NCBI GenBank assembly: GCA_964387845.1
Contig: CAYLXA010000002.1
Coordinates: forward strand, 64,001 to 128,000
Origin: an uncultured bacterium
Lineage (GTDB): Bacteria; Omnitrophota; Omnitrophia; Omnitrophales; Abzuiibacteriaceae
DNA: 64,000 nt
Direction of reading: 5' to 3'
Made by a program: the position numbers and the translations under genes. Shown here piece by piece: positions 26,032-54,224 of this stretch (position 1 is its first letter; every line of letters starts with the position of its first letter). A model generated the notes under the pieces. That model worked only from the letters and a program-made list of their open reading frames with translations. It had not been told where the DNA came from and searched no databases.

Positions 26032-26805
26032 ATGATGAATGCGTGGTTTCAGTTTGTTTGCTGGTTTAATCAGAAGGCGAAAAGTTTGGCTATCCGATTG
26101 GTGAAATGGACCGGAAAAAGCACGCAATACATTCACCCAAAACATCTGATCAAGGACGATCATCATCATTGGTTTGTCAAATTTTTGCGTGCAGGTGACC
26201 AGGTTTTGGATTTGGGCTGCGGCGGAGGCGCTCATAGTTTTGTGGCGGCAGAGCATGTAAAAGCGGTAAAGGGAATCGATCATTCCAGCCGGAACCTTGA
26301 AATCGCGAAGCGATTGGCGTCCGAAAAAAAACTAACAAATGTGCAATTCGCAGAAGGAGATTTGGAAAAGCCGCTGGATGAGAAAGATCAAACCTACGAT
26401 GTCGTGATCGCGCTGGACATTTTAGAGCACCTGCACAACCGGGAACAATTTTTAAATGAAGCAGCTCGTGTTTTGAAACCTGCCGGCCGGCTGGTTGTTG
26501 CAATCCCAAACCGTGACACGCAGTGGAAGAAAGCTTTAAAGCGCCACGGACTTTTCTATTATTCAGACTTGGACCATAAATACGAATATGAACAGAGCGA
26601 GCTTGATGCGGTATTCAAAAGGGGCCATTTTTCGATCCGGTCGATCGAACCGGCCGTCTACGATACGCCGTGGGTTGGGTTAATCGATTTAATCGGCGGT
26701 GTGTCGATTGGCTGGTACAGAAAGTTGGCCGACTGGAAGCGCAGTATGGCACTTAAATATCCTTCGGAATCAACCGGATTTCGAATCGAGGCGGTTAAAA
26801 ATTAA
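26032..26805 (+). CDS. class I SAM-dependent methyltransferase
   Basis: Motif I 'VLDLGCGGGAHSF' and a post-I acidic residue. Methyltransf_11/25-like. Confidence 0.75.
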   Translation: MMNAWFQFVCWFNQKAKSLAIRLVKWTGKSTQYIHPKHLIKDDHHHWFVKFLRAGDQVLDLGCGGGAHSFVAAEHVKAVKGIDHSSRNLEIAKRLASEKKLTNVQFAEGDLEKPLDEKDQTYDVVIALDILEHLHNREQFLNEAARVLKPAGRLVVAIPNRDTQWKKALKRHGLFYYSDLDHKYEYEQSELDAVFKRGHFSIRSIEPAVYDTPWVGLIDLIGGVSIGWYRKLADWKRSMALKYPSESTGFRIEAVKN

Positions 26806-35905: not shown

Positions 35906-36589
35906 ATGAACTGGATGCATAGAATTATCCGCGGCATTGGTTTGCGTTTGCAGAATATTTTTATACTTCGAGATGCCAAGAGCGAAATTAATAAAAAGCA
36001 GTATTTAAAAGGCGGGGAGTATGACGCCTACATTCAGAATCAATTGACTCACACGATTGGTCTCCGAACCAAGGACGCGGCGTTCCGATATAATAAATTT
36101 ATTACAACATTTTTAGAAAAAGTACCCGGCGTTGATCGTTCGAGCAAAGTCCTGTGCGTCGGTTGCCGTAACGTGCATGAACTTGACGCTTTTAGAGACG
36201 CAGGGTTTAAAAATATAGTCGGGGTTGATTTATTTTCGACCAATCCTCAAATTTTAGTCATGGATATGCATGATTTGAAATTTGATAATGATTCTTTTGA
36301 TATTTTATACAGCGCGGCAACCTTTGAAAAAGCGTATGACCCTCAAAGAGTTGCGAATGAGTTTTTAAGAGTCGTCAAATCTTCCGGTTATATTATTTTG
36401 GAAGTGGGCGCGCACTACAAAACAGGCGAAGTAGATCGCCATGATTTCGAAAATCTCCCAAATCTTTACCAGTTTTTTAAATCGTCAATGGGCTCAATAT
36501 TTTACGAAGCAGACACGGAGGATAGTTTGGTGACTATTTTCCAAGTTCAAAAATCAACCGCAAAAAGTTTTAGCGACACCCACCCATAA
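35906..36589 (+). CDS. class I SAM-dependent methyltransferase
   Basis: 'VLCVGCRNVHELDAF…GVDL' motif I/II, and 'FDILYSAATFE…VVKSSGYIILEV'. Confidence 0.7.
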   Translation: MNWMHRIIRGIGLRLQNIFILRDAKSEINKKQYLKGGEYDAYIQNQLTHTIGLRTKDAAFRYNKFITTFLEKVPGVDRSSKVLCVGCRNVHELDAFRDAGFKNIVGVDLFSTNPQILVMDMHDLKFDNDSFDILYSAATFEKAYDPQRVANEFLRVVKSSGYIILEVGAHYKTGEVDRHDFENLPNLYQFFKSSMGSIFYEADTEDSLVTIFQVQKSTAKSFSDTHP

Positions 36590-36607: not shown

Positions 36608-38560
36608 ATGAATACACTTTTAATTCTTGATGATTTGGCGGAGCTTCTATCATCTAAAAATAAAACCATACAAAAGCTGCTTTCGGCGTACTTGCAGCAT
36701 TTGGCGCGTTCAGCCGATGGCGCGGCTGAGGAGTTGTTGCGTGACGGTGATACGGTTTTTGCGGCAGGTCCGCAGGAGGTTTTAAGCCGTGTCACAGGAC
36801 CTTGCGAAAAGCTGGATTACGGAATCTGGTTCGATACAATCCCGTTTGCGCGCGGCGGGGAGATTGCAGGAAAGATAGTGGAGCAGATTCGGGTTTCCGA
36901 AGAGCTTAAGTCGATCTGCCCGTTTCTGTATCGGAACACGATTTCAATTCCAAAAATCGCCGCGATGCGGCTGATCATTACATTCTGCTACCACGCGGTC
37001 AATAATTATCTTTTACTTGAAAGCATCATTCGAAAAAAGCAAATTCAGAAAATCGTGGTTTTGGGGTCTGGTGCTGAAATTGAAATTTTAGGAAAAGAAT
37101 TGTCAAAGAAGCATCGCTTACAGTTTCAAGTCATGCGCCCTCATGATGTAATTTTAAAATTAAAAGTTAGGTTTGCTGATTATCTTTTTTATCGAGACAG
37201 AAAACTTCATGCCCTTCAATCGTTTCAAAACTGCGACAGCTTGCCTAAGCAAGAAATCAAGAAGAGGAACCATAAAAAATTGATCGCCATGCTTCCGGCG
37301 CATTCCCTTCATTTTAAAATCATGGACTCGCTCATGGGCGCGCTTCGCCAATCGCGCAATTATGAGCCATGCGTGCTGCTTCAAGATGCTTTTGAGCCGT
37401 ATCAAGGGGCATTGAAAAATTCGGGAATAGCATTCCGATTTCTTCATGATTTTTCGAGCAGGGAACTTATGGGAAAATTTCAAAATTATTTTAAAAATCT
37501 CAAATCTGCTTGGAAGAAATTAAGAAATTCGGATACATTTAAATCTGCGTTTGACTGCGATGGGCTCAATTGGTTCGATATTCTGAGAGTCGAAATGGAG
37601 TGGTTTTTTAAATTCAGCTATGCTGAAACGCTGGTCTTGCAGGAGCGCTTACGAAAAGCGATGGCAGATGTGCCGATAGATTCCGTTTTTACTTTTAGCG
37701 ATTCACGGTTTTTTGAAGCGGGAGGTGCGGCAATTGCACGGGAGATGAAAAAGCCCTCGTTTTTATATTCTCCTAATTTTTTATACGATACAGACGGTAT
37801 TAACGACTACGATACGGCGGAATTTGTTTTGACCGTGGGCAATCAAATGAAAGATTATATTGCGGCGCGCGGCAAGGTGAATCCGAGTCAAATTTTCACC
37901 GTTGGCGATATCCGTTTTGACGGAAGCGAAAAATGGCGAAGCAGCGATCAGGCCGAGAAAACTCGTGTACAGCTTCAAATTCCATCGGACAAAAAGGTAT
38001 TTATTCTAACCTCGTTTTACACTTGCTTTGGCTATAATGCATACGACAAGAAACGCTTCTTTGAAATGATTCGAGATGCCGCCAAAGCCAATCCGGACGT
38101 TGCGATTGTGATCAAGGCACATCCGAACGAGAGCGAAGAAGTTCTGCGGCAATTTGTTAAAAGTTTGGGCATGAGTGATTTTCCGTTAACAAAAACAATG
38201 CCGCTTTATTCGCTGTTTGGAATATCCAGCGGGCTTATTTCGTTGACGTCTCTTGCGGCAGTCGAAGCCATGGCATTGGATTTACCGGTTATCATTGCGA
38301 CGCTGCCGGATCGAAATTACGATTACTATATCCCATTTCGCCAATCCGATTCGGCAGCGTATGCTGCAAGCGCCGAAGAGCTCTCCTTGATTTTTAGAAA
38401 ATTAATTGATGAATCGAACTACAAAAAAAATTTGTTGGAACGGCATCGACAATTTGTTTCGCGTTATGTGGACCGAGGCGGGCAGAGCGCCGGCCAACGG
38501 GTTATTCAGGTTCTAGATAAAATTGTGAATTCCGAACGTGAGAATTTGGGGCAGCTCTAA
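36608..38560 (+). CDS. two-domain protein: N-terminal domain of unknown function plus a C-terminal GT-B-like 'HP-motif' transferase domain (KpsS/TagF/sialyltransferase-like). Candidate nonulosonic acid transferase.
   Basis: The C-terminal ~250 aa contain '…KKVFILTSFYTCFG…' and 'VAIVIKAHPNESEE', followed by 'LISLTSLAAVEAMALDLPVI'. A K-x-HP motif of this kind is shared by PF05159/TagF/GT38/GT52 enzymes. The gene ends 5 nt before the CMP-NulO synthetase gene. Confidence 0.45.
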   Translation: MNTLLILDDLAELLSSKNKTIQKLLSAYLQHLARSADGAAEELLRDGDTVFAAGPQEVLSRVTGPCEKLDYGIWFDTIPFARGGEIAGKIVEQIRVSEELKSICPFLYRNTISIPKIAAMRLIITFCYHAVNNYLLLESIIRKKQIQKIVVLGSGAEIEILGKELSKKHRLQFQVMRPHDVILKLKVRFADYLFYRDRKLHALQSFQNCDSLPKQEIKKRNHKKLIAMLPAHSLHFKIMDSLMGALRQSRNYEPCVLLQDAFEPYQGALKNSGIAFRFLHDFSSRELMGKFQNYFKNLKSAWKKLRNSDTFKSAFDCDGLNWFDILRVEMEWFFKFSYAETLVLQERLRKAMADVPIDSVFTFSDSRFFEAGGAAIAREMKKPSFLYSPNFLYDTDGINDYDTAEFVLTVGNQMKDYIAARGKVNPSQIFTVGDIRFDGSEKWRSSDQAEKTRVQLQIPSDKKVFILTSFYTCFGYNAYDKKRFFEMIRDAAKANPDVAIVIKAHPNESEEVLRQFVKSLGMSDFPLTKTMPLYSLFGISSGLISLTSLAAVEAMALDLPVIIATLPDRNYDYYIPFRQSDSAAYAASAEELSLIFRKLIDESNYKKNLLERHRQFVSRYVDRGGQSAGQRVIQVLDKIVNSERENLGQL

Positions 38561-38564
38561 TCAC

Positions 38565-39281
38565 ATGGCAAAAAAAATATTACTAACCATTGCTGCCCGC
38601 GGCGGTTCAAAAGGTGTTAAGAATAAAAACATTCGAATGCTTCACGGAAAGCCGTTGATTGCCCACACAATTCATGCTGCGTTGAAATGGGGAAAGGCAG
38701 ATCGTGTAGTGGTCAGCACTGACTCGGCTGCAATTGCACGAGCAGCGCGGAAATATGGCGCTGAAGTCCCGTTCTTGCGGCCCGCTGCGTTTGCTCGGGA
38801 TTCTTCCCCAAAATGGCATGCATTAAAGCATGTATTGGAACAATCTGAGAAATTCTTCAACGAACGCTATGATTTGGTGATTGACCTGGATGTAACGGCG
38901 CCAATTCGCAGCGGGCAGGATATTGATGTGTGTCTTCAAAAGTTTTTACGCTTCAAACCCAAAACGCTTTTCAGCGTAACGCTCGCCCATAAGAATCCGT
39001 ATTTTAATATGGTGGAAGAAACAAAAAATGGTCGCGTGCGGGTCTCAAAGAAGTTGAGGACAAGCATTGTCCGGCGTCAGGATGCGCCCAAGGTTTACGC
39101 AATCAATGGTTCGATTTATGTTTATTCGCGTAATTACCTGCTCAAGTCTAAAAATCCTATTGCGACGAGCGATGATTCAATTATTCACGTGATGGATGAA
39201 CTAAGCGGTATCGACATAGACCGTGAAATCGATTTCAAATTCGTTGAATTCTTAATTCGCGAAGGCATGGTAAAGTTTTGA
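38565..39281 (+). CDS. acylneuraminate cytidylyltransferase family (CMP-nonulosonic acid synthetase, LegF/NeuA/PseF-like)
   Basis: 'ILLTIAARGGSKGVKNKNIRMLHGKPLIAHTI' is the hallmark N-terminus of CMP-NeuAc/CMP-Leg synthetases. 239 aa. Confidence 0.85.
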   Translation: MAKKILLTIAARGGSKGVKNKNIRMLHGKPLIAHTIHAALKWGKADRVVVSTDSAAIARAARKYGAEVPFLRPAAFARDSSPKWHALKHVLEQSEKFFNERYDLVIDLDVTAPIRSGQDIDVCLQKFLRFKPKTLFSVTLAHKNPYFNMVEETKNGRVRVSKKLRTSIVRRQDAPKVYAINGSIYVYSRNYLLKSKNPIATSDDSIIHVMDELSGIDIDREIDFKFVEFLIREGMVKF

Positions 39282-40150
39282 AAACCACTCGCATTATTCC
39301 TCGCCTCGATATTAAAGGCCCTAACCTGGTGAAGGGAATTCACCTTGAGGGCTTACGTGTTCTTGGTAAGCCTGAAAAATTTGCTCGCTATTACTACGAA
39401 ACAGGTGCTGACGAACTTCTCTACATGGATGTTGTTGCTAGTCTGTATGGGCGAAATAGTTTGCTCGATATTATTTCCAAAACTTCAAAAGAGATTTTTA
39501 TTCCGTTAACGGTTGGCGGCGGCCTCAGATCTTTGGTTGATATGCAGGCTGTTCTTCATGCGGGTGCTGATAAGGTCGCGATCAATACTGCCGCAACGCA
39601 AAACCCGGAGATTATTCGCGAAGCCTCTAAACGCTTCGGATCTTCAACCATTGTCGTCTCGATTGAGGCCATTAAGCAACCCGACGGCACTTATCATGCT
39701 TTCATCGACAACGGACGTCAGGAAACCGGCTTGGATGTGTTCGATTGGGTTCAAAAAGTTGTCGAGTTGGGTGCTGGTGAAATTTTGCTGACCTCTGTCA
39801 ATCAAGAGGGAACGGGAAAGGGTTACGATCTTGACCTCATCAAAAAAGTTTCCGAAATGATTCCGATTCCCGTGATTGCTTGCGGCGGAGCGAAAAATAA
39901 ATCCGATGTGGCGAAAGTAATTATGGAAGGATGTGCGGATGCTGTGAGCGCTGCATCGATCTTTCATTATCATTATATTCGTGAAAACAGGTCAACCTCA
40001 GATTTTGAAACCGAAGGCAACGTTGAATTCTTAAAAAGCGGCAAGGGATTCAGCCAGTTTGACACAGTGACAGTTCGCGATGTTAAAAAGCATTTAACAG
40101 ATTTAGGGATCGAATGTCGTTATGAAAAAGGTTTGGTGGAACATGGCTAA
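39278..40150 (+). CDS. imidazole glycerol phosphate synthase cyclase subunit HisF paralogue (WbuZ-like, glycan amidotransfer)
   Basis: 'IIPRLDIKG…VKG' and a (beta/alpha)8 HisF signature 'ILLTSVNQEGTGKGYD'. Located in a glycan locus, not in a his operon. Confidence 0.8.
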   Translation: MKTTRIIPRLDIKGPNLVKGIHLEGLRVLGKPEKFARYYYETGADELLYMDVVASLYGRNSLLDIISKTSKEIFIPLTVGGGLRSLVDMQAVLHAGADKVAINTAATQNPEIIREASKRFGSSTIVVSIEAIKQPDGTYHAFIDNGRQETGLDVFDWVQKVVELGAGEILLTSVNQEGTGKGYDLDLIKKVSEMIPIPVIACGGAKNKSDVAKVIMEGCADAVSAASIFHYHYIRENRSTSDFETEGNVEFLKSGKGFSQFDTVTVRDVKKHLTDLGIECRYEKGLVEHG

Positions 40151-40817
40151 ATCCAAACCGCGAGTCGCTATTGTCAATTACGGCATGGGAAATCTGTTCA
40201 GCGTGCAGCAAACCTGTGCTCATGTTGGCCTTGAAGCCGTGGTTACAAACCAAAAAAGGGATCTCCAAACGGCTGACGGAATCATTTTGCCTGGCGTTGG
40301 GGCATTTGGAGATGCTATGGACAACCTAAACCGTTTAGATATTACAGAAACCCTCCAGAAGGCCATTTTATCTGAAAAAAAGCCTTTTCTAGGGGTCTGC
40401 CTGGGCCTGCAATTACTTATGGAGGAAAGTGAGGAATTTGGGTATCATAGAGGCCTTGGTGTAGTCAAGGGGAAGGTAATTCGCTTTGGCGATCAGATAA
40501 AGGGCAGGGATGGCAGGGCAGCGAAAGTCCCTCAAGTCGGTTGGAATCAGATATATCCTACGCCAAGCGGAAGTGAATGGAGCCAGTCGCTTTTGTCCGG
40601 AGTTTCAGAGGGCGATTTCATGTATTTTGTGCATTCATACCACATTGAGCCAGAAGATAGAGGCGTTCGTTTGTCAATGACGCGCTATGGTAATTTTGAA
40701 TTTTGCTCCAGTGTACAGAAGGGAAATATCTTTGGCTGTCAGTTTCATCCGGAACGAAGCGGTGCCAAGGGCGTTACGGTTTACCAAAATTTTTTGAAAT
40801 TATTTTCTAAATCTTAG
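40143..40817 (+). CDS. glutamine amidotransferase HisH paralogue (WbuY-like)
   Basis: Class I GATase triad context 'GVCLGLQLL' (Cys) and 'FHPE' (His/Glu). ATG 40143 overlaps the hisF-like stop (ATGGCTAA). Confidence 0.8.
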   Translation: MAKSKPRVAIVNYGMGNLFSVQQTCAHVGLEAVVTNQKRDLQTADGIILPGVGAFGDAMDNLNRLDITETLQKAILSEKKPFLGVCLGLQLLMEESEEFGYHRGLGVVKGKVIRFGDQIKGRDGRAAKVPQVGWNQIYPTPSGSEWSQSLLSGVSEGDFMYFVHSYHIEPEDRGVRLSMTRYGNFEFCSSVQKGNIFGCQFHPERSGAKGVTVYQNFLKLFSKS

Positions 40818-40825
40818 GAGCAATA

Positions 40826-41659
40826 ATGAGTGTACTTTCAGCAAGTGTTTCATTAATGCGGCGATTTACTTTATCGCTTCCCAAACCCATTTCAAACCAT
40901 GCCGCAAAAGCATACGAAAAGATTGGATCAACATTCATTGGGCTTTCAGATCAAATGAATTTTGTTCAAAGCGCATCGGGAATACGAAATGATACAGAAT
41001 CTTTTCGACGTGATCTGTTGTGCAAGTTTAACCGTATTCAAAATAATATGATCTGCGCACATCAACCAAATGAGCTTCTCATATTGTCAGACACGATTTT
41101 AAAACTCTCAATTCCCGGCGATATTGTAGAGCTGGGTTGTTATAAAGGAGGTTCATCTGCCAAATTAAGCTGGATAGCGGCGACTACGGGTCGAAAATTG
41201 TATGTTTGCGATTCATTCGAGGGGTTGCCACAGCCTAACGAGCACGATCAATTCCACAAATCGCTCATTGGGCGAGATAAGCATTACAATCAGGGAGATT
41301 ATTGTGGTCAGCTAGACGAAGTAAAGGATAATATTAACCGTTATGGCAGCATGGCGTCTTGCGAATTTATAAAAGGTTTTTTCTCAAATTCGTTAAAAGA
41401 TCTAAAAGTAAAACCAGCACTCATTTTTATGGATGTGGACCTTATTGATTCAGCGCGTGATTGCCTCATTCATTTATGGAATAAGCTGGAAAAGGGCGGA
41501 AAATATTTTACTCACGAAGCCACGATGTTAAATTTTATAACTGAACTTACGAATCATGATTGGTGGCAAAGAAATTTTGGGCATCCAGCTCCTATTCTAA
41601 TGGGAGTCGGATTTGGCATGTCAGATCAAGCAAAAAATCTTGCTTTTTTCCAAAAATAA
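40826..41659 (+). CDS. TylF/MycF-family SAM-dependent O-methyltransferase
   Basis: 'VELGCYKGGSSAKLS', 'VCDSFEGLPQP' and 'FMDVDLIDSARDCLIHLWNKLEKGGKY' match macrocin-O-methyltransferase family blocks. Confidence 0.6.
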   Translation: MSVLSASVSLMRRFTLSLPKPISNHAAKAYEKIGSTFIGLSDQMNFVQSASGIRNDTESFRRDLLCKFNRIQNNMICAHQPNELLILSDTILKLSIPGDIVELGCYKGGSSAKLSWIAATTGRKLYVCDSFEGLPQPNEHDQFHKSLIGRDKHYNQGDYCGQLDEVKDNINRYGSMASCEFIKGFFSNSLKDLKVKPALIFMDVDLIDSARDCLIHLWNKLEKGGKYFTHEATMLNFITELTNHDWWQRNFGHPAPILMGVGFGMSDQAKNLAFFQK

Positions 41660-41661
41660 TT

Positions 41662-42495
41662 ATGACCAAAACAATGCCATCGATAATGATAAATTTAAAT
41701 AAAAAAGCATTGCTCGATATCGCTGAGCAAAAACACCATGAATATGTGACTGCAAGTCCGTTCCCGCATATAGTGATTGATGATTTTCTTCCTCCAGATA
41801 TTTTAGATGTTGTTTTAGAAGAATTTCCAAACCCAGGCGATCCTGTTTGGCTTCAGCATGTTCACGCGAATAGTAAAAAAATGGCATGTAACGATGTTGA
41901 TAAAATGGGACAAATCACTCAACAACTTTTTTATCAATTTAATTCTGCGCTTATCATTGAGTTTCTAGAGAAGCTAACCGGCATTTCGGGACTAATTCCA
42001 GACACAAATTTTACAGGTGGAGGACTTCATTGTATTGGAGAAGGGGGATTTCTAAAAATCCATGCGGATTTTAATTTTCATGAAAAATTAAAATTAGACC
42101 GACGTCTCAATCTACTTGTTTACCTCAACAAAAATTGGAAAGAAGATTACGGCGGCCATTTGGAATTATGGGACAAGAAAATGACTCATAGCGTTAAAAA
42201 AATTCTCCCCATTTTTAATCGTTGTGTTGTATTTGATACCACCGATTTTTCGTTTCATGGCCATCCCGATCCTTTGCAATGCCCTAATAACGTCTATCGA
42301 AAGTCATTAGCTCTCTATTATTATTCCAATGGACGTCCCCTGGAAGAGAAGTCAGATTCGCACTCTACTCTCTATCAGGCGCGGCCACATGAAATTCGGA
42401 TGAAGCACGTTGTTAAAAAGCTATTACCTCCGATTATTTTTGATTTTCTTGTGGATGCAAAAACAAATTTAAAGAAAAAATCTAAAAAAGCATGA
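41662..42495 (+). CDS. 2-oxoglutarate/Fe(II)-dependent oxygenase, prolyl-4-hydroxylase-like
   Basis: HxD…H facial triad 'LKIHADFN … SFHGHP', with the P4H-like 'RLNLLVYLNKNWKEDYGGHLELW' between the two. The probable start is the ATG at 41662; the ORF track starts upstream at 41560. Confidence 0.6.
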   Translation: MTKTMPSIMINLNKKALLDIAEQKHHEYVTASPFPHIVIDDFLPPDILDVVLEEFPNPGDPVWLQHVHANSKKMACNDVDKMGQITQQLFYQFNSALIIEFLEKLTGISGLIPDTNFTGGGLHCIGEGGFLKIHADFNFHEKLKLDRRLNLLVYLNKNWKEDYGGHLELWDKKMTHSVKKILPIFNRCVVFDTTDFSFHGHPDPLQCPNNVYRKSLALYYYSNGRPLEEKSDSHSTLYQARPHEIRMKHVVKKLLPPIIFDFLVDAKTNLKKKSKKA

Positions 42496-42499
42496 AGCT

Positions 42500-43723
42500 A
42501 TGACGCAATCTGAAACTCAAAATAAATTTAAAACCAAGTACGGTTTGCCGTCAGAAGTAATTTTCTGCAAGCGTTGCGTCATGTCAAACCAGCGGCCCGC
42601 TTCAAGTAAAGAATTCAAGCATACCAAATCTCAAAAACACACAACGCTTAATATTCCAAACGATGGTATCTGCGATGCGTGCCGTTACGCGGATAAAAAA
42701 GAAGAAATCAATTGGAAAAGCCGAGAAGCCGAACTTTTGAAACTGCTCGACCGCCACCGCAAAACGGACGGAACTTACGATTGCATTGTTCCTGGAAGCG
42801 GCGGAAAAGACAGTGTTTATGCAGCGCACTTGCTCAAATACAAATACGGTATGCATCCTTTGACGGTCACTTGGCCGCCAATTCTTTACACCGATATTGG
42901 TTACGCGAATTTTAGAAATTGGCTCTACAAAGGCGGTTTCGATAACATTTCGTTTAATTACAACGCCAAAGTTCATGCACTATTAACAAGACTCGCCATC
43001 GAAAACCTTCTTCATCCTTTTCAACCTTTTATTCTTGGACAAAAAAACCTCGCGCCCAAGCTCGCTTTAAAATATGAAGTGCCTTTGATTTTCTACGGTG
43101 AAAGTGAAGCAGAATATGGAAATCCGCTTGCAGAGACCGCAACCTCGCTCCGCGATAAATCTTATTTCACGATGGAAAATCTTTCCGATATTCATTTGGG
43201 CGGCGTAAGCGTGAAAGAACTTCAGGAAAAATACAAACTCACAATCAACGACATTATGACTTATTTGCCGCCGACGGCATCCGAGGTCGCCAAAATGAAT
43301 ATGGAAGTTCATTACCTTGGTTATTATTTAAAATGGACACCGCAGGAAGCCTATTATTACTCGGTTGAAAATGTGGGTTTTCAGGCAAATCCATTCCGCA
43401 CCGAAGGCACTTACAGCAAATACAACAGTTTGGATGATAAAATAGACGGCTTCCACTATTACACCACTTTCATTAAATTTGGCTTAGGTCGCGCAAGTTA
43501 CGATGCATCACAAGAAATTCGCAACAAACATTTGACGCGGGAAGAAGGTATAGCGCTTGTCCGCAAGTTTGACGGGGAGTTTCCTCAAAAATATTTTCAG
43601 GAAATCATGGACTATATCGGCATGAAGCCCGATCATTTTCTGGATCTTTGCGACCAATTCCGGTCTCCGCATTTATGGAAAAAAGAAAATGGGAAGTGGA
43701 TCTTGCGCTATCCGGTCAATTAA
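42500..43723 (+). CDS. N-acetyl sugar amidotransferase (WbuX/PseA family, PP-loop ATP pyrophosphatase)
   Basis: PP-loop 'IVPGSGGKDSVYAAHLL'. About 400 aa, as in WbuX/PseA. Adjacent HisH/HisF paralogues complete the known acetimidoyl-forming trio. Confidence 0.8.
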   Translation: MTQSETQNKFKTKYGLPSEVIFCKRCVMSNQRPASSKEFKHTKSQKHTTLNIPNDGICDACRYADKKEEINWKSREAELLKLLDRHRKTDGTYDCIVPGSGGKDSVYAAHLLKYKYGMHPLTVTWPPILYTDIGYANFRNWLYKGGFDNISFNYNAKVHALLTRLAIENLLHPFQPFILGQKNLAPKLALKYEVPLIFYGESEAEYGNPLAETATSLRDKSYFTMENLSDIHLGGVSVKELQEKYKLTINDIMTYLPPTASEVAKMNMEVHYLGYYLKWTPQEAYYYSVENVGFQANPFRTEGTYSKYNSLDDKIDGFHYYTTFIKFGLGRASYDASQEIRNKHLTREEGIALVRKFDGEFPQKYFQEIMDYIGMKPDHFLDLCDQFRSPHLWKKENGKWILRYPVN

Positions 43724-43747: not shown

Positions 43748-45547
43748 ATGACACAGCCGCAAGCAATCAAATACAGCTCTCTGCTTTATTTTATATTGCA
43801 GTATAAAAAAAATTTTTTTGTTTTATTAACTGCAACTCTCGCCGTATCATTTTTTGAAATTTGTCAATTGGCCGCAATGCTGCCAATTTTGAACCGTTTA
43901 ATTCCTGCCACGTCACCCAACGTGCCTGTGCCCGGGTTAAAATTTTTTGAAGGTGCCATTGCAATGGCTCCCTTCAAAGAAACACTAATCTCGGCCGTGG
44001 CTGTGTTTGCTGTTGTTGTGATTGTGCGTTTTTTTATTGTATTCACCGCCGAGCTTTTAAATCATCGAACAACCCAGGAAATCATCTATCAAACAAAAAG
44101 AAAAATTCTCAAAAAAACCTTGGCATCCAAGTACCAATTTTTCCTCGACAGTAAGCACGGAGACCTTTTTTTTATTTGCATTACGGCGCCCGAGAATGCC
44201 GGCGCTTATTTGTCTATTTTCGTTTCAGCTGTGATTTACTTTTTTACCACCATTGCAATTCTAGGGTTTTTGCTATCGATCAATTTTGTTGTCACTTGTT
44301 CCATTATTTTACTCGGGCTTTTGTATTATTTAGGTACGCGGAAGATTTCCGTGCGCGTTTCGTATGTAGGTGGCCAAAAAAGGATCGGTTTGATCAAAGA
44401 ACAACATGGTCTGATTCAAGAATCTCTGCAAGGCATTAAATACATCATTACTTATGGAAAACAGGAGCCTTTGCAGCGAGTGTTTGACCGATCAAGCCGT
44501 GCATTTTGCGATCAAGTCCATCGAGACACTTTCTGGCAGACTCTATTGCAAAAAGTACCAGAGCCAGCACTTTTACTTCTCGCTTCTTCAGGCATCATTC
44601 TGTTGGTAACGTCTATCGGTCAACAAGCCGTCGGAAGTTATCTCAACATCATCGGCGTTTACTTTTTTGCAATCCAAAGAATTATTCCCGCCTTAAATAA
44701 ATTCAGCACCTCTGCTTTTCAAGTGCTGGCCGGCATGCCCAACTTAGAGGCGTGTCAGAATTTTTTGGAAGCTCCTATTGAAAAACAGGCTGACGGCAGC
44801 ATCGCCGTTGATCAGCTTAAGGATGCGATCAGATTTGAGAATGTCAGTTTGACATATCCAAACGGTAAGCATGTCTTGAAAAGTGTGAGTATGATTTTTA
44901 GGAAGGGGAAAACAACCGCAATTGTCGGGGAATCCGGATCCGGTAAGACTTCGGTGGTTAATTTAATTTTGGGCCTGCACCATGCGAGTAACGGCTCTAT
45001 CCTCATTGACGAACATTCGCTGAGCGATGTCAGAATGAGTACTTTGCTGAGCAAAATCGGCTATGTTGGGCAGGAGACATTTCTACTCCACGCCAGCGTT
45101 AAAGATAACATTGCTTTTTACGATCAGTACTCGGATGAAAAAATCATGGAAGCTGCCAAAATGGCGGACGCGGCTGAATTTATCGAAGAACTGCCAGATC
45201 GATATGACACCATTGTGGGGTCCGGAGGTATGAAGCTTTCGGGCGGCCAGCGTCAACGGCTTGCGATTGCGCGCGCATTGTTGCGGCGGCCGGAGATTTT
45301 AGTGTTAGATGAGGCAACCAGTAACTTGGATAGCATTTCAGAAGGCGTTGTGCAGCAAACCATCAATCACATTGCTCAGTATTATACGGTTATTGTCGTT
45401 GCGCACAAATTATCAACGGTGAAAAGTGCCGATCAGATCTACGTACTGCACGATGGTCAAATAGCAGAATCCGGTACGCATGAAGCATTGATGGAAAGAC
45501 GCGGAAAATATTACCAGCTGCATTTTATTTCCAGCGGTTCTGATTAA
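43748..45547 (+). CDS. ABC exporter, fused TMD-NBD (MsbA/PglK/WzkA-like lipid-linked glycan flippase candidate)
   Basis: Six N-terminal TM helices. Walker A 'GESGSGKTS', signature 'LSGGQRQRLAIARAL', Walker B 'LVLDEATSNLD' and H-loop 'VVAHKLST'. Confidence 0.85.
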   Translation: MTQPQAIKYSSLLYFILQYKKNFFVLLTATLAVSFFEICQLAAMLPILNRLIPATSPNVPVPGLKFFEGAIAMAPFKETLISAVAVFAVVVIVRFFIVFTAELLNHRTTQEIIYQTKRKILKKTLASKYQFFLDSKHGDLFFICITAPENAGAYLSIFVSAVIYFFTTIAILGFLLSINFVVTCSIILLGLLYYLGTRKISVRVSYVGGQKRIGLIKEQHGLIQESLQGIKYIITYGKQEPLQRVFDRSSRAFCDQVHRDTFWQTLLQKVPEPALLLLASSGIILLVTSIGQQAVGSYLNIIGVYFFAIQRIIPALNKFSTSAFQVLAGMPNLEACQNFLEAPIEKQADGSIAVDQLKDAIRFENVSLTYPNGKHVLKSVSMIFRKGKTTAIVGESGSGKTSVVNLILGLHHASNGSILIDEHSLSDVRMSTLLSKIGYVGQETFLLHASVKDNIAFYDQYSDEKIMEAAKMADAAEFIEELPDRYDTIVGSGGMKLSGGQRQRLAIARALLRRPEILVLDEATSNLDSISEGVVQQTINHIAQYYTVIVVAHKLSTVKSADQIYVLHDGQIAESGTHEALMERRGKYYQLHFISSGSD

Positions 45548-45550
45548 GCT

Positions 45551-46693
45551 ATGAAGTCCGTTTTATTTATCAAGCCGCCGATGCGGTACGGTAAGTTTTA
45601 TTTTCGGATCGCGCAATACATCGAGTATTTCAAGAAAAATGATTGGGAAATTAACGTTTTATATCCGGCTCCGGACGGCGCGACACTGGTTCAAAAGCTT
45701 TCAGCGGCGGACATTTTTTATAAAGCATGTCATTTGCTGGCGCAATTTCCAAAGTTTTTGGTAGATCTGGCAAAGTGCGACCTGGTTATTGTATTTCCTT
45801 CGCCCACGATGGTACTTTATGCGGTTTGGGTTGGCTTGTTTCAGAAAAAAATGCTAATTGAACACACGGTTTCTTACATCTCTCACCGGGATGTGTGGCC
45901 TTGGTATCCTGTTTGGCTGGACAGGTTGCTATATCGGCAGTCAGCCGCGGTCATGACTCATACCGAAAGTATGCGCGAAAGCTTGGTGAAGCAGTTTAAG
46001 CTTCCTGGCCGTCAAGTTGTTGCGTCGTACTGTAATGTGGATCTGGAGAAATTTTCTCCCCGATACGATAATGAGGTTTTGTCGTTAAAGAAAAAGTTAG
46101 GCATTCTTTCGAAGAAAGTAGTGTTTTATCATGGGCTGATGCATGAGTGGCATGGCGTGGACTTGATTTTAGAGGCGGCAAATCGAGTATCCCAAAAACA
46201 TTCGGATGTTGTATTCGTGTTCATGACAGGCGTATCGGATATTTTTAACGGATTACCGGATTATATTTTGCATCTAAACGAACGCGATTACTATACGTGG
46301 GAAACGTTGCCGGTTTTTATTCAATTGGCGGATATTTGGGTTAGTGGATTTCGAAATGTTCAGCGCGGCGATCAAACGTTTGGATCTACTTTAATTCAGG
46401 CGCTGGCCATGGGTCGAACCGTTATTACATCCGACAGCCCGGAAAAAAGAAAATTCTTAAGAAATCAAGAAAATGCATTGCTGGTAAAGTCCGAATCCGC
46501 TTCGGCGATCGAGGAAGGTATTTTGTATTGCTTGAGTCATGAATCAGAGAGTAAAAGACTGGGCGCCGAAGCCAGAAAGATAGCGGAGCGTTCTTTCTCG
46601 ATTCAAGCACTCGAGGAAAAGCTTGATCAACTGAGCGCGCATAATTCCGACCGTGCAATTAAAGAATCGCAGCAGAAAGTTTTTGCGCCATGA
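45551..46693 (+). CDS. GT-B glycosyltransferase (GT4-like), divergent
   Basis: C-terminal 'STLIQALAMGRTVITSDSPEKRKFLRNQENALLV' resembles the GT4 nucleotide-binding half. The N-terminal half has weak similarity only. Confidence 0.5.
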   Translation: MKSVLFIKPPMRYGKFYFRIAQYIEYFKKNDWEINVLYPAPDGATLVQKLSAADIFYKACHLLAQFPKFLVDLAKCDLVIVFPSPTMVLYAVWVGLFQKKMLIEHTVSYISHRDVWPWYPVWLDRLLYRQSAAVMTHTESMRESLVKQFKLPGRQVVASYCNVDLEKFSPRYDNEVLSLKKKLGILSKKVVFYHGLMHEWHGVDLILEAANRVSQKHSDVVFVFMTGVSDIFNGLPDYILHLNERDYYTWETLPVFIQLADIWVSGFRNVQRGDQTFGSTLIQALAMGRTVITSDSPEKRKFLRNQENALLVKSESASAIEEGILYCLSHESESKRLGAEARKIAERSFSIQALEEKLDQLSAHNSDRAIKESQQKVFAP

Positions 46694-47355
46694 AACCGGC
46701 AATGGATTCATTGTCATATACTTTCCGAAGGCGGTTGTTGGATAATTCTTTAAATCGCCACTGTGCTCATTTGGAAGAGCCGGTCGTTGAGATTGGGAAC
46801 GGCACCCGCGACCGGCGCGGGCGGTATCAACCGCGGCAATCTAAATGGTTTGTTGTTGATATCGAAAATAGCAAACGCCCTAATTTGCTCGCTGATGGAG
46901 AGCAGCTGCCGTTTCACGACCAATCAGTAGCAACCGTAGTTGCGCTTGAAGTTTTAGAACATGTAAAAAGGCCCGAGCATTTCTTAAAAGAAATTCACAG
47001 GGCGTTAAAACCAAACGGAGAATTTCTTTTAAGCATGCCTTTTTTGTACCGATATCACGCGGCTCCTCATGATTTTCAGCGGTATACGGAACCTAAATTG
47101 AGAACGATTCTGGCGGAATCCGGTTTTTCGATTGAGCAACTTGAATATCACGGATTTTATTTTACGGTGATGAGCGAGCAGATTAAATCGCTGCTGGCTA
47201 GAATTGCACCCAAGTGGTTGCGGCAGTTGTTGGGCATTATGGTGTTGCCGTTTTTATGGTTTCTTGTTTTTCTTGATCGCACATCATGGGTTGCAAAATC
47301 TGATTTTTTGACGAGTTATACAACAGGTTTTTTTGTCGTAGCACGCAAAGCCTAG
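46690..47355 (+). CDS. SAM-dependent methyltransferase (Methyltransf_11/23-like)
   Basis: 'ALEVLEHVKRPEHFLKEIHRALKPNGEFLLSMP' post-motif II/III region. Motif I is degenerate ('VEIGNG'). Has a hydrophobic C-terminal tail. Confidence 0.55.
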   Translation: MKPAMDSLSYTFRRRLLDNSLNRHCAHLEEPVVEIGNGTRDRRGRYQPRQSKWFVVDIENSKRPNLLADGEQLPFHDQSVATVVALEVLEHVKRPEHFLKEIHRALKPNGEFLLSMPFLYRYHAAPHDFQRYTEPKLRTILAESGFSIEQLEYHGFYFTVMSEQIKSLLARIAPKWLRQLLGIMVLPFLWFLVFLDRTSWVAKSDFLTSYTTGFFVVARKA

Positions 47356-48381: not shown

Positions 48382-49557
48382 ATGAAGCGAATAAAATCCA
48401 ACATAGACGCCACAAGTGTTCTGAAGGCTGTTAGGAAGTGCTTGCCCGGGGACAGTCGCCCCATCCAACTTCACGAGCCCTGGTTTGCCGGCAACGAGCA
48501 GAAGTATGTCAGTGCGTGCATTAAGAGCGGGATTGTTTCATCGATCGGGCCTTATGTTGAACAGTTTGAGAAACAATTGATCCGATTGACAGGCTCAAAA
48601 TTTGCAATTGCCACGATCAACGGAACAGCTGGGCTTCATACGGCACTCCGAATGGCCGGAGTAGAGGCAAATGATGAGGTTTTAGTGCCGTCATTGTCAT
48701 TCGTTGCAACATCAAATGCGATCGCGTATTGCGGCGCTATTCCTCATTTTATTGACAGTGAGATGCGGGCGCTTGGCGTTGATCCGCACAAGCTTCAGGA
48801 TTATTTGGTAAAAATATCCAAACGGCGAAATAGCGGCTTCATCAATAAAACAACAGGCCGGAGAATAAGAGCGGCGGTTGTGGTGCATACATTCGGCCAC
48901 CCGGCGGATCTTGACGCTATCCAGGCAGTTTGCAAAAAATTTAAACTTCCACTAATTGAAGATGCTGCAGAATCGATCGGATCCTATTACAAAGGGAAGC
49001 ACACCGGTACAATCGGAGACTTTGGTGTTTTAAGCTTTAACGGCAACAAAACAATCACGTCAGGCGGCGGAGGCGCGATTTTAGTACAGAATCAAAAACT
49101 GGCAAAACATCTCCGGCACATTACAACCACCGCTAAAATACCTCATGCTTGGCGTTATTATCATGATGAAATCGGATATAATTATCGGCTTCCCAATCTA
49201 AACGCTGCGCTTGGCTGTGCGCAATTGGAGTCGCTGCCGATGTTTATCAAGCGCAAACGGGCCTTAGCCAAACGTTACGAGAAGGCTTTCTCCCATATTA
49301 ATGGAGTTAGTTTTATTAAGGAACCTCCTTTTGCAAAAAGCAACTACTGGCTAAATGCTGTCAGGCTGGAAGGTGTTGGATTGCGGGAAAGAGATCGGTT
49401 TTTAACGCTTATGCACACGCACAACATTAAAACAAGGCCGGTGTGGACACTGACGCATCGTCTTCCTATGTATCGAAATTGCCCGCGAATGGATATGTCC
49501 GTATCAGAGAAAATTGAAAAAGAAACTATTAACCTGCCCAGCAGCCCAGCGTTATGA
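48382..49557 (+). CDS. DegT/DnrJ/EryC1/StrS-family PLP-dependent sugar aminotransferase (LegC/PglE-like)
   Basis: 'LHEPWFAGNEQKYVSACIKSG' N-terminus. PLP-lysine region 'SFNGNKTITSGGGGAIL'. Confidence 0.85.
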   Translation: MKRIKSNIDATSVLKAVRKCLPGDSRPIQLHEPWFAGNEQKYVSACIKSGIVSSIGPYVEQFEKQLIRLTGSKFAIATINGTAGLHTALRMAGVEANDEVLVPSLSFVATSNAIAYCGAIPHFIDSEMRALGVDPHKLQDYLVKISKRRNSGFINKTTGRRIRAAVVVHTFGHPADLDAIQAVCKKFKLPLIEDAAESIGSYYKGKHTGTIGDFGVLSFNGNKTITSGGGGAILVQNQKLAKHLRHITTTAKIPHAWRYYHDEIGYNYRLPNLNAALGCAQLESLPMFIKRKRALAKRYEKAFSHINGVSFIKEPPFAKSNYWLNAVRLEGVGLRERDRFLTLMHTHNIKTRPVWTLTHRLPMYRNCPRMDMSVSEKIEKETINLPSSPAL

Positions 49558-51737
49558 AGCGAAGAATTTGTGTAGTTACTAGTTCGCGCGCCGATTTTGG
49601 TCATCTGCAGTGGGTCATGACCTATCTGAAAAAAGATCCGAGAGTTCGCTTGCAAGTTGTGGTGACCGGCTCACACTTATCTCGCGCGCATGGAACCACC
49701 TTGCGCGAAATTCAGGACGCGGGAATTTCTGAATCTGCTCGGATTCCAATCATTGCAAAAGGGGATTCTGTTGTTGCGATAACGCAAGCGGCTGGAATGG
49801 CATTGAGCAGATTTGCAAAGGTCTTTGACAGGCTCAAACCCGAATTGCTGCTGGTTGTGGGAGATCGTTATGAAATTCATTCGGCCGTAACGGCGGCGCT
49901 TCTCGCTAAAATTCCGGTTGCACATATTGCCGGTGGCGACATTACGGAAGGGGCATTCGATGACGCGTTGCGGCACAGTATCACCAAAATGGCTCATTTG
50001 CACTTTGTGACAAATGCCGTGTCGGCGAAACGAATTCGGCACATGGGAGAAAACCCTTCGCATATTTTTAACGTTGGAAATCCTGCGCTTGACCATGTAA
50101 CGAAATCAAAATTATTCACTAAAAACGAAATTGAGGAGAAGCTTGCTTTCAAAATGCGCTCACGCAATATCTTGATTACGTTTCATCCGGTTACGCTGGA
50201 CACCGAACCATCTGACCGGCAATTTAAACAGTTGCTGAGCTCGCTGAATCGGTTGGGAGACGAATATGGCCTTATTTTTACTAGGCCCAACGCGGATCCG
50301 GCAGGACAAAAGATATCTAAATTGATCGATCATTTTGTCAAAACGCATTCAAACGCTATTGTAAAAGCCTCGCTAGGTCATTTGTTATACTTAAGCATCA
50401 TGAATGAAGTTGATTTGGTTGTCGGAAATTCATCAAGCGGGATTTATGAGGCGCCAACATTTAAAATTCCCACAGTTAACATCGGAAACCGGCAAAAAGG
50501 CCGCTTGCGAGCGGCTTCTGTGATTGATTGCGCGCCGAGCAGGGCGGCAATTAGCCGAGCAATTCGGTCAGCTCTAGCAAAGGATTGCTCGCAGGTTGAA
50601 AATCCTTACGGACGGGGAAATAGTTCCGAGCAAATTTATAAGATTATTCGCTCTGTCCAGAACCCAAAAACACTAATTCAAAAGAAATTTTATGATGCCG
50701 GCGTGCCCACTAAAACTGGGCCGGTTTATGTGATCGCCGAAGCGGGGGTGAATCATGGCGGCTCGCTGAAACTTGCAAAAAAACTGATCGACGCAGCTTC
50801 GCAAGCCGGCGCTAATGCGGTCAAGTTTCAAACTTTTGATTCGGATATGCTGGTAACGCGACAAGCTAAAAAAGCAAAATACCAGCAAGACACAACCGGC
50901 AAAAATGGGTCTCAATATGAAATGCTCAAAAAATTAGAACTCAGCCAGAAAGATCATTTTGCGCTGAAAGCTCACTGCAAAAAAAGAAAAATTGATTTTT
51001 TATCGACCCCTTTTGATTTAAAAAGCCTTGATTTCTTAATCAACAATCTGCAGGTCCGGAAAATTAAAATATCTTCAGGCGATATTACCAACGGGCCGCT
51101 ACTGTTGAAAGCTGCGGAATCAAAACTTCCGATTATTTTATCAACCGGAATGTCAACGCTTGACGAAATTGAAGCTGCCGTAAGATTGATCGAGAAAGGA
51201 TATCGATCCAGCGCCTCTCTTTTAAAATCAAACTTAAAACTGCTTCATTGTACAAGCGAATATCCGGCCTCATTTTCTGATATGAATTTGTTATCGATCG
51301 ATTTTTTAAGAAATTATTTTCAATTGGATGCCGGGCTGTCAGATCATTCGAGCGGGATAGCAGCTGCAATTGCAGCCGTAGGGCGCGGCGCATCCATTAT
51401 TGAAAAACACATTACTTTGAATAAAAGCATGGCAGGCCCCGATCACCGCGCATCGCTTGATCCGAATGAGTTTCGAGAACTGGTTCGATCAATTCGCCAA
51501 GTCGAAGAAGCTATGGGATCCTACGTAAAAAGGCCGGCAGCGTCAGAATTAAAAAACCGAAGCGCAGCCAGAAAGAGCATCGTCGCTTCCAAGCCGATTA
51601 AACGCGGAGAAAGGCTGACCCGTCACAATCTGGCGCTGAAGCGTCCCGGTGTCGGGATCAGCCCCATGAATCTTTCGGAAGTCATAGGACGACTATCAAC
51701 CAAAAATTATAAAAAAGACGATATCATTGTTATCTAA
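49554..51737 (+). CDS. fused hydrolysing UDP/GDP-HexNAc 2-epimerase (NeuC/LegG-like, N-terminal half) and nonulosonic acid synthase (NeuB/LegI-like, C-terminal half)
   Basis: Residues 1-~375 read 'VVTSSRADFGHL…VVGDRYEIHSA…HIAGGD…RHSITKMAHLHF', which align with E. coli NeuC. Residues ~385-727 read 'VYVIAEAGVNHGGSLKLAKKLIDAASQAGANAVKFQTF', the NeuB TIM barrel, and end in a C-terminal SAF domain. Confidence 0.85.
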   Translation: MKRRICVVTSSRADFGHLQWVMTYLKKDPRVRLQVVVTGSHLSRAHGTTLREIQDAGISESARIPIIAKGDSVVAITQAAGMALSRFAKVFDRLKPELLLVVGDRYEIHSAVTAALLAKIPVAHIAGGDITEGAFDDALRHSITKMAHLHFVTNAVSAKRIRHMGENPSHIFNVGNPALDHVTKSKLFTKNEIEEKLAFKMRSRNILITFHPVTLDTEPSDRQFKQLLSSLNRLGDEYGLIFTRPNADPAGQKISKLIDHFVKTHSNAIVKASLGHLLYLSIMNEVDLVVGNSSSGIYEAPTFKIPTVNIGNRQKGRLRAASVIDCAPSRAAISRAIRSALAKDCSQVENPYGRGNSSEQIYKIIRSVQNPKTLIQKKFYDAGVPTKTGPVYVIAEAGVNHGGSLKLAKKLIDAASQAGANAVKFQTFDSDMLVTRQAKKAKYQQDTTGKNGSQYEMLKKLELSQKDHFALKAHCKKRKIDFLSTPFDLKSLDFLINNLQVRKIKISSGDITNGPLLLKAAESKLPIILSTGMSTLDEIEAAVRLIEKGYRSSASLLKSNLKLLHCTSEYPASFSDMNLLSIDFLRNYFQLDAGLSDHSSGIAAAIAAVGRGASIIEKHITLNKSMAGPDHRASLDPNEFRELVRSIRQVEEAMGSYVKRPAASELKNRSAARKSIVASKPIKRGERLTRHNLALKRPGVGISPMNLSEVIGRLSTKNYKKDDIIVI

Positions 51738-53420: not shown

Positions 53421-54224
53421 ATGAACTCATCAACCGTACCCCAAATCAGCATTTTACTTTGTGTTCACAACGGTGAACGAACAGTTGAGCAAGCGATCAA
53501 CAGTCTTCTTGCTCAGACGTTTAAGGATTTTGAGCTCATCGTGATCAATGATGGGTCAACCGATTCTACTCTCGCTCAGTTAGAGAAATTTCAAGACCCA
53601 AGAATCTTCATTCAAAGCATCCCCCGGCGCGGACTCACGAAAGCGCTCAATGTGGGGCTTGCTCAATGCCGCGGTGAATTCATTGCGCGCGTCGATGCTG
53701 ATGATGTTGCGCTGCCTAATCGGCTTGAGCGCCAGGCTGTATTCTTAAATAAGCATCGAAGCGTGGGCGTGATTGGGACCGGGTATGAAATTTTAACTGA
53801 AAACGGTTCGCGAAAACGGGCGACCGTCCCTCTCCTGGAAACCGATTATGAAATCAAGCAAGCTCTTCCGAAATTTAACCCGTTTCACCACGGGTCAGTC
53901 ATGATTCGCCGGCAAATTTTGATCGAAGAGGGCGGCTATGATGAAAATTTTAAACTGGCTCAGGATTATGAACTGTGGCTCAGGCTATCAGGACGTTGCC
54001 AAATGGCTAATATCGGGGAAGTTCTGATGGTGCGCAGAGAGGGCCGAGAAACACTCAAAAAAGAACGCGAACAAAATTGGTACGGAATCAAGGCCAGATT
54101 GAAAGCAATTCAGCGAGGGAATTTAAGTTTTTGGAACGTGATCTACATTCTTCGCCCATTTTTAGTTGTGCTAACACCGGACTGGATAAAATCCGTTATT
54201 CGAAAATTGATCCGAAATGCCTAA
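53421..54224 (+). CDS. glycosyltransferase family 2
   Basis: 'ISILLCVHNGERTVEQAINSLLAQTFKDFELIVINDGSTDST' and a 'DADD' DxD motif. Confidence 0.8.
   Translation: MNSSTVPQISILLCVHNGERTVEQAINSLLAQTFKDFELIVINDGSTDSTLAQLEKFQDPRIFIQSIPRRGLTKALNVGLAQCRGEFIARVDADDVALPNRLERQAVFLNKHRSVGVIGTGYEILTENGSRKRATVPLLETDYEIKQALPKFNPFHHGSVMIRRQILIEEGGYDENFKLAQDYELWLRLSGRCQMANIGEVLMVRREGRETLKKEREQNWYGIKARLKAIQRGNLSFWNVIYILRPFLVVLTPDWIKSVIRKLIRNA

Follow-up and report, generated by a model that had tools for sequence, protein, structure and literature searches.

Gene clusters for acetamidino-substituted legionaminic acid are already well known, and the group itself is formed by a trio of proteins, a HisF paralogue, a HisH paralogue and a PP-loop amidotransferase of the WbuX family. 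These three protein families are represented by WbuX/WbuY/WbuZ in Escherichia coli O145 and by WbpG/HisH2/HisF2 in Pseudomonas aeruginosa, where they act on N-acetylfucosamine (FucNAc) or 2,3-diacetamido-2,3-dideoxymannuronic acid (ManNAc3NAcA)-type sugars. Here we describe such a trio in a stretch of 64,000 nucleotides from an uncultured bacterium of the Omnitrophota (contig CAYLXA010000002.1, positions 64,001 to 128,000), which is called the window in the following. In contrast to the two systems above, the window co-encodes a legionaminic acid pathway. Its trio is interrupted, whereas we take those of E. coli O145 and P. aeruginosa to be contiguous. The interrupting genes encode an S-adenosylmethionine (SAM)-dependent methyltransferase (MT) of the TylF/MycF/NovP family and an Fe(II)/2-oxoglutarate (2OG) oxygenase (OXY) resembling prolyl 4-hydroxylases (P4H/PHD-like). 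This insertion is the only new feature of the locus itself.

The O-antigen locus of Legionella pneumophila serogroup 1, responsible for a polylegionaminic acid of 5-acetamidino-7-acetamido legionaminic acid (Leg5Am7Ac), likewise has a WbuX-family amidotransferase with an SGGKDS motif and a Zn-tetracysteine, and in both cases the legionaminic acid (Leg) biosynthesis genes share one locus with an ATP-binding cassette (ABC) exporter. We know of no oxygenase described in the Legionella locus. Tailoring of a nonulosonic acid (NulO) by a methyltransferase is documented in this genus (PMC3766260). The known tailoring differs from the present case, as it consists of N-methylation (ORF8) and O-acetylation (Lag-1) and not of a TylF-type methyltransferase or a 2OG oxygenase.

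With respect to the oxygenase, the nearest chemical precedent for hydroxylation of a NulO is KdoO, a 2OG oxygenase that, once glycosyl transfer has taken place, hydroxylates a 2-ulosonic acid at its 3-deoxy carbon (PMC8533242). Sugar hydroxylation by such enzymes is thus not unprecedented, contrary to the earlier note on this DNA, which had called a hydroxylated sugar very unusual for a bacterial glycan. The analogy is functional only: KdoO belongs to another protein family (OXY gave no Kdo_hydroxy or other KdoO-family match in Pfam or NCBIfam at E ≤0.01) and has no partner methyltransferase. Among the closest sugar-tailoring systems are the orthosomycin 2OG oxygenases HygX, AviO1 and EvdO1/O2 and the methyltransferase-oxygenase fusion EvdMO1. 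Tpa1, OGFOD1 and PHD as well as PolD and PasI share with OXY the Pfam clan and the HxD...H...R arrangement. OXY differs from them by an identity of at most 21%, by the lack of the second double-stranded β-helix (DSBH) domain of Tpa1 and OGFOD1, and by its context, which comprises polysaccharide clusters and methyltransferases and not translation or hypoxia sensing as for Tpa1, OGFOD1 and PHD. Neither an interrupted trio nor a module of TylF-type methyltransferase and P4H-like oxygenase in a NulO locus was found in the literature searched.

Results

According to the open reading frame (ORF) listing, five genes of the same direction occupy positions 39278-43723 on the + strand of the window. They encode a HisF paralogue of the WbuZ/HisF2 type (39278..40150), the putative cyclase-like partner in the ammonia-delivering pair, a HisH paralogue, which is a class I glutamine amidotransferase for ammonia supply (40122..40817), MT (40826..41659) and OXY (41662..42495) as first and second gene of the module, and a WbuX-family PP-loop N-acetyl sugar amidotransferase (42500..43723). 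The gaps are 8 nt between HisH and MT, 2 nt between MT and OXY and 4 nt between OXY and WbuX, provided that OXY starts at the ATG at 41662. The longest ORF of OXY opens at a TTG at 41560 and overlaps MT, and the public gene call puts the start 8 codons later, which widens the middle gap to 26 nt.

MT and OXY stand apart in composition. With a GC content of 0.390 and a GC content at third codon positions (GC3) of 0.335 for MT, and 0.366 and 0.302 for OXY, both are the lowest of 55 ORFs, whose GC3 has a mean of 0.474 and a standard deviation of 0.038. Measured by the whole window, MT has a GC3 z-score of -3.7 and OXY one of -4.6, and with only the glycan cluster as reference the values are -4.9 and -6.1. 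In codon usage, too, the pair shows the two largest distances among the 55 ORFs.

WbuX is highly conserved. Many homologues are found at 72-77% identity, and the five nearest ones with usable contigs were inspected (L168, L169, L170, L173 and L174). In each of these loci HisF, HisH and WbuX are contiguous (they are fused, overlap or are separated by no more than 11 nt) and lie among genes for NeuB, NeuC, a CBS-containing nucleotidyltransferase and a CMP-transferase. MT and OXY therefore form a derived insertion. Relative to the five loci, the C-terminus of HisH and the N-terminus of WbuX are full length. Composition, contiguity and intact flanks together support the clean acquisition of a two-gene cassette of 1.68 kb. 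The earlier note had seen an AT-rich segment from about 40.8 to 42.5 kb and had taken the two genes for a horizontally inserted cassette. GC, GC3 and codon usage confirm the former, and the foreign composition together with the contiguous trio in the relatives agrees with the latter. A recurrence of the insert at homologous WbuX loci, for which the note had suggested to look, is absent in the five nearest loci.

The pair recurs in other settings. We compiled a census of MT homologues from 80 genome loci (GTDB species representatives) and 80 metagenome loci, 1.91 Mb in sum, and searched it with tblastn for OXY. An OXY homologue is present in 15 of the 160 loci, always within 620 nt of MT and nowhere else in the flanks, and all four possible arrangements were seen (MT>OXY, OXY>MT, convergent and divergent). 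The share of informative loci with OXY as a neighbour rises with MT identity, from 6 of 71 below 42% over 4 of 29 at 42-46% to 5 of 8 from 46% upwards. Two close MT homologues (P0135 and P0136) add further pairs, with OXY immediately downstream and overlapping by 4 nt. Across the pairs, the identity of the MT partner to its window counterpart correlates with that of the OXY partner (Spearman 0.72, p = 0.002).

In the representative library, OXY is also found fused to an FkbM-type methyltransferase (P0484), to a family 2 glycosyltransferase (GT2; P0388) and to a GT2-like N-terminus (P0374). Two further proteins (P0366 and P0367) combine OXY with a conserved domain, about 300 aa long, which carries the TylF-like motifs EFGxxGG, GLP and DLDxYSS. 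Its similarity to the MT profile is modest (hhalign probability 66%, E 5.6e-5), and this C-terminal domain had no match among PDB sequences or in Pfam. In Sinorhizobium meliloti, the gene next after OXY codes for an unrelated class I methyltransferase, for which a TylF-like assignment was rejected (E = 2), so that OXY pairs with different methyltransferase families. The coupling of OXY to at least three such families argues that the two activities would meet on one chemical group. MT+OXY is an uncharacterised, widespread and recurrent module, a finding that goes beyond the earlier note.

Two loci of the census deserve mention for their neighbours. In L007 (1974-4149), an MT homologue of 48% identity follows a GT2/GT9 fusion gene and a DDE transposase comes next, and in L089 a GT9 heptosyltransferase adjoins an MT+OXY pair. 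These are hints of lipopolysaccharide-core contexts and of mobility.

MT matches PF05711 with 80.5 bits (gathering cut-off 23), in line with its earlier assignment to the TylF family, and gave no match against NCBIfam. The glycine-rich SAM motif and the acidic core are present (ELGCYKGG at 102, DSFEGLP at 129 and DVD at 203). D129, D203 and D205 do not vary across 35 homologues, and the acidic residues align with VDSFQGMP and LDGDLYES of 5i10; from MycF and NovP, we assume these three aspartates to be metal binders. Among proteins of solved structure, MT is closest to the O-methyltransferases 5i10 and 4cdz, MycF and NovP. The subfamily is small, with 213 matches and a best identity of 52%, and the 120 best homologues include none named as Campylobacter or Legionella. 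In the locus of the closest homologue (52%; L088, 983-1336) an ABC exporter homologue follows, 32% identical to that at 43748-45547 of the window. This short contig echoes the gene order of the window minus the intervening genes.

OXY was assigned to PF13640 (2OG-FeII_Oxy_3) with 70.4 bits against a gathering cut-off of 27. The residues H134-x-D136, H199/H201 and R213-x-S215 are invariant in an alignment of 38 sequences, and with them the iron and 2OG ligands, including the HxD...H triad that had been read as intact before. An AlphaFold model displays the DSBH fold with a predicted local distance difference test score (pLDDT) of 87.9 and a predicted template modelling score of 0.83. Matches to NCBIfam stay below threshold, with 34.1 bits against 150 and 21.5 bits against 240 for the YhhC and FlmC 2OG oxygenase models (NF041706 and NF052475). 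The label 'FlmC family 2OG oxygenase' was dropped because the score is far under the cut-off; FlmC of Caulobacter is regarded as a cytidylyltransferase-like protein (PMC7591256). OXY belongs to a very large family, with more than 7,473 matches in a collection clustered at 90% identity, the top ones being 54-63% identical and coming from cyanobacteria, Streptomyces and bacteria of the candidate phyla radiation, and the representative clusters number 4,620 at E ≤0.001 and 1,196 at E ≤1e-30. An experimentally assigned function for the family, also for members in polysaccharide loci, was not found in the literature searched. Residues 242-277 (window 42385-42495) form a conserved basic C-terminal tail with the family consensus KKLxPPI. 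The tail is modelled as two helices of lower confidence (pLDDT 56-77) and may be an element for membrane association or partner binding.

OXY homologues without MT (41-60% identity) lie in polysaccharide clusters in five of the six genome contexts examined, a small sample in which two plasmid records (H2 and H4) were read by tblastn with the window proteins. In Streptomyces (L002), OXY comes directly after a Wzy_C gene. In Pleurocapsa and Allocoleopsis it directly precedes a conserved polytopic membrane protein, among a flippase and glycosyltransferases. On the S. meliloti megaplasmid it is accompanied by an O-antigen-ligase family protein, glf and glycosyltransferases, and in Cupriavidus it stands directly before rmlB/rmlD-like genes. 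The neighbours in Streptomyces and the two cyanobacteria are hints of a link between OXY and polymerase- or ligase-like membrane proteins. The membrane proteins following OXY in two cyanobacterial loci (L005, 8878-10293; L172, 9388-10776) are 462-471 aa long, show 45% mutual identity and belong to no Pfam family. Among the MT+OXY pairs, some are situated in polysaccharide clusters as well, e.g. in Bradyrhizobium (L077). Consistent occurrence of OXY homologues in unrelated, non-glycan contexts, which the earlier note had named as a sign of a coincidental neighbour, was thus not observed.

The amidotransferase downstream of the pair is a clear WbuX. It matches TIGR03573 with 347.4 bits (cut-off 203.2) over profile positions 2-342 of 344, and aligns to the L. 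pneumophila N-acetyl sugar amidotransferase (NASAT; PDB 8WEX) with an E-value of 9e-162. The family is defined by the PP-loop SGGXDS and the Zn-tetracysteine CXXC...[GN]XCXXC (PMC10607449), and in the window protein we found SGGKDS at residue 100, CKRC at 23 and GICDAC at 56. Paralogues of HisH and HisF are encoded upstream here and in all five nearest homologue loci. HisH (TIGR01855, 209 bits; PF00117, 71 bits) contains the nucleophile motif GVCLGLQ and HPE. The HisF-like protein matches PF00977 with 214 bits and the housekeeping HisF model TIGR00735 with 267.5 bits (cut-off 294.55). To reach wbuXYZ of O145, E. coli genomes were searched by blastn with the WbuX gene as query, and no match was obtained at the DNA level.

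Between 47369 and 53397, on the + strand, a legionaminic acid block was detected. LegB (TIGR04180, 522 bits), LegC (TIGR04181, 524 bits) and the NeuD/LegH acetyltransferase (TIGR03570, 181 bits) are all above their cut-offs. The same is true for both parts of a LegG-LegI fusion protein of 727 aa (49554-51737; TIGR03568 for NeuC, 434 bits, and TIGR03569 for NeuB, 461 bits). The NeuC-type hydrolysing 2-epimerase and the NeuB-type synthase are one protein here and separate genes in five related loci. A PtmE-like nucleotidyltransferase with a CBS-containing N-terminus is encoded in the same block. The CMP-nonulosonate cytidylyltransferase (LegF/NeuA-like; 38538..39281, + strand; PF02348, 70 bits; TIGR03584 for PseF, 131 bits, below cut-off) adjoins the trio on its upstream side with a 4-nt overlap. 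The enzymes of the GDP-sugar pathway, LegB, LegC, LegH, LegG, LegI, nucleotidyltransferase and CMP-synthetase, are hence all present. As the cluster holds the whole route to CMP-legionaminic acid, CMP-Leg5Am7Ac is most likely the product of the trio, as in L. pneumophila; this prediction is based on family membership and context. The family models and the complete pathway are in good agreement with the earlier description of the trio as acetamidino-forming machinery, and the domain assignments proposed with it were obtained for all five proteins (TIGR03573, TIGR01855, PF00977, PF05711 and PF13640).

Housekeeping genes fill the window's first 15 kb (the 3′ end of argS, miaA, hflX, rpoN, GGDEF genes and a transaldolase gene), and a glycan cluster encoded nearly on one strand extends from about 15.2 to 62.2 kb. 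At the boundary lies an ORF of 779 aa (12775-15114) that has no Pfam family at E ≤1e-8. Directly downstream of WbuX, a fused ABC exporter with transmembrane and nucleotide-binding domains is encoded (43748..45547, + strand; PF00005, 112 bits; PF00664 weak), followed by a family 1 glycosyltransferase (GT1), a methyltransferase and the legionaminic acid block. Beyond this block there are glycosyltransferases, a Wzy/ligase-like membrane protein and a WcaJ-type initiating transferase. A protein of 731 aa (54217-56412) has two tandem GT4-type modules, as several NCBIfam GT4 models match it in two places. A protein of 650 aa (36608-38560), encoded just upstream of the CMP-synthetase, weakly matches, with its C-terminal third, TIGR04396 (surface carbohydrate biosynthesis protein), the BFO_1060 family glycosyltransferase and PF05159 (Capsule_synth). 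The BFO_1060 family is a NulO-transferase family of Tannerella, and the protein is a candidate legionaminic acid transferase. Three more class I SAM methyltransferases are located in the glycan cluster (26032-26805, 35906-36589 and 46690-47355). One of them could be a PtmH-like N-methyltransferase, or they could serve in O-methylation of other residues.

Discussion

In our view, the locus probably joins two units of different history, the acetamidino trio and a horizontally acquired tailoring module of MT and OXY, the target of which would most likely be a sugar of the cluster's own glycan. For the trio, we propose that HisH releases ammonia from glutamine, that WbuX activates the acetamido carbonyl with ATP by means of its PP-loop, and that HisH, HisF and WbuX together would convert the 5-N-acetyl group of CMP-5,7-di-N-acetyllegionaminic acid (CMP-Leg5Ac7Ac) to the acetamidino group. 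The module may have landed between hisH and wbuX with no damage to either gene, and would now be read through in the same operon. MT and OXY would share one substrate moiety, most likely a sugar of the glycan, and provide a second, independent decoration.

Two orders of reaction fit the data. OXY might hydroxylate a C-H position and the putatively metal-dependent MT methylate the new or an adjacent hydroxyl, with net methoxylation as the outcome. A precedent for this order is the 2OG-dependent hydroxylation of the 3-deoxy carbon of Kdo (3-deoxy-manno-oct-2-ulosonic acid) by KdoO, yielding Ko (PMC8533242). Alternatively, the methyl ether could be formed first and then be oxidised in a 2OG-dependent step, leading to a methylene acetal or bridge, a formyl group or demethylation. 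Here the precedent is the methylenedioxy bridge of everninomicin, for which methylation followed by oxidative cyclisation was proposed (PMC13374393). We rank hydroxylation before methylation somewhat above the reverse. The earlier prediction of a hydroxylated and O-methylated sugar thus stands for one of the two orders only. Substrate, reaction order and the possible targeting of legionaminic acid are matters of inference.

Several observations weigh against this two-unit reading. Neither WbuX nor HisF was found near any of the MT homologues in the 160 loci, which means that the module is tied to the acetamidino sugar by its position in the window alone; this position inside the trio may be incidental. 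The closest MT+OXY pairs often lie outside glycan clusters, with neighbours such as RecG, ABC and MacB/HlyD proteins, ApbE together with biotin carboxylase, YfhO glycosyltransferases or a GT9 heptosyltransferase. A search for direct or inverted repeats and mobile-element remnants between 40.6 and 42.7 kb yielded only chance-level matches of 10-17 nt. The best structural matches of OXY are the protein prolyl hydroxylases Tpa1, OGFOD1 and PHD. Finally, the HisF-like protein scores 274.4 bits against the WbuZ model TIGR03572, below the equivalog cut-off of 299.7; its putative role gains support from its place beside HisH and WbuX, an arrangement that relatives share, but strict equivalog membership does not.

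A possible, though doubtful, alternative is that the module acts on the NulO itself and gives rise to a hydroxylated and O-methylated Leg5Am7Ac. OXY could hydroxylate the 3-deoxy carbon, as with KdoO, or the 9-methyl group, and the vicinal diol so formed would then be O-methylated. The placement of the pair is suggestive, inside the acetamidino trio, next to the CMP-NulO synthetase and apparently co-transcribed. A scan for promoters and terminators between 38 and 46 kb gave signal counts not above those of shuffled sequence. KdoO also offers a precedent for hydroxylation of a 3-deoxy-2-ulosonic acid (PMC8533242). In a second Leg cluster, from a metagenome (L129, 4955-10323), a TylF-family methyltransferase of 40% identity is co-directional and about 2 kb downstream of LegB, situated between ORFs of 698 and 517 aa. 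Yet this is the only one of the 160 MT-homologue loci with Leg genes, and OXY is missing from it. Near-orthologues of OXY (54-60%) reside in clusters of Streptomyces, Pleurocapsa and Allocoleopsis without NulO genes, and the window cluster itself contains rmlB/rmlD-like genes, UDP-sugar dehydrogenases and several short-chain dehydrogenase/reductase (SDR) enzymes, which point to other possible sugars. Of the earlier prediction, tailoring of a glycan by the pair gains support from the association with polysaccharide clusters, whereas a hydroxylated, O-methylated NulO does not, for want of any NulO association and in view of the missing WbuX and HisF.

A more far-reaching version, which we regard as rather improbable, would see in MT+OXY a widely distributed two-component system for glycan tailoring that here rewrites legionaminic acid itself into an undescribed class of nonulosonic acids. 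Leg5Am7Ac would then be hydroxylated at C3, in a KdoO-like manner, or at C9 with subsequent O-methylation, or be furnished with a methylene acetal.

We think it unlikely that MT N-methylates the 5-acetimidoyl group to form the N-methylated derivative Leg5AmNMe7Ac, comparable to ORF8 of L. pneumophila and PtmH of Campylobacter, while OXY is unrelated or N-demethylating. Such a modification of Leg5Am7Ac by a methyltransferase encoded in the cluster is documented (PMC3766260, PMC13306086, PMC13317340), and MT directly adjoins the amidino-forming genes. Against this, the solved relatives in the TylF/MycF/NovP family are sugar O-methyltransferases, D129, D203 and D205 are kept, and the structural relationship favours a function as O- rather than N-methyltransferase. 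Moreover, the amidotransferase is lacking in all 160 MT-homologue loci, and a PtmH-like role could be filled by any of the three other class I methyltransferases of the window.

Equally unlikely, in our estimate, is OXY being a protein hydroxylase for prolyl or other residues of a ribosomal, translation or glycoprotein substrate, for which the glycan neighbourhood would be secondary. Besides the fold matches mentioned above, the non-glycan neighbourhoods of some MT+OXY pairs speak in its favour. However, these matches do not exceed 21% identity, and PolD and PasI, enzymes of small molecules and sugar nucleosides, score nearly level with the prolyl hydroxylases. The modelled fold does not settle which class of substrate is used. 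The GT2-OXY and OXY-methyltransferase fusions, too, speak against a protein substrate. The genomic surroundings, with polysaccharide clusters in five of six contexts, point to a glycan rather than protein proline as the probable substrate.

That MT and OXY are hitch-hiking passengers, a selfish or neutral insertion tolerated in the operon with no role in the glycan, is very improbable: their foreign composition, the DDE transposase next to one MT homologue (L007) and the heterogeneous neighbourhoods of homologous pairs would fit, but neither ORF is disrupted, every catalytic residue is conserved, the 8/2/4-nt packing keeps the operon, the flanking genes are undamaged, and transposase, repeat or scar features are absent.

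Conclusions

The wider value of the finding lies in the OXY family, which is spread over Wzx/Wzy-type polysaccharide clusters of cyanobacteria, actinomycetes and proteobacteria. With its defined nucleotide-sugar pathway, intact module and clean boundaries, the window is a compact test case for this family. Should OXY turn out to hydroxylate sugars, or to oxidise their methyl ethers, this would be a new type of reaction in the diversification of bacterial surface glycans, and it would explain unassigned decorations of +16, +30 or +12 Da.

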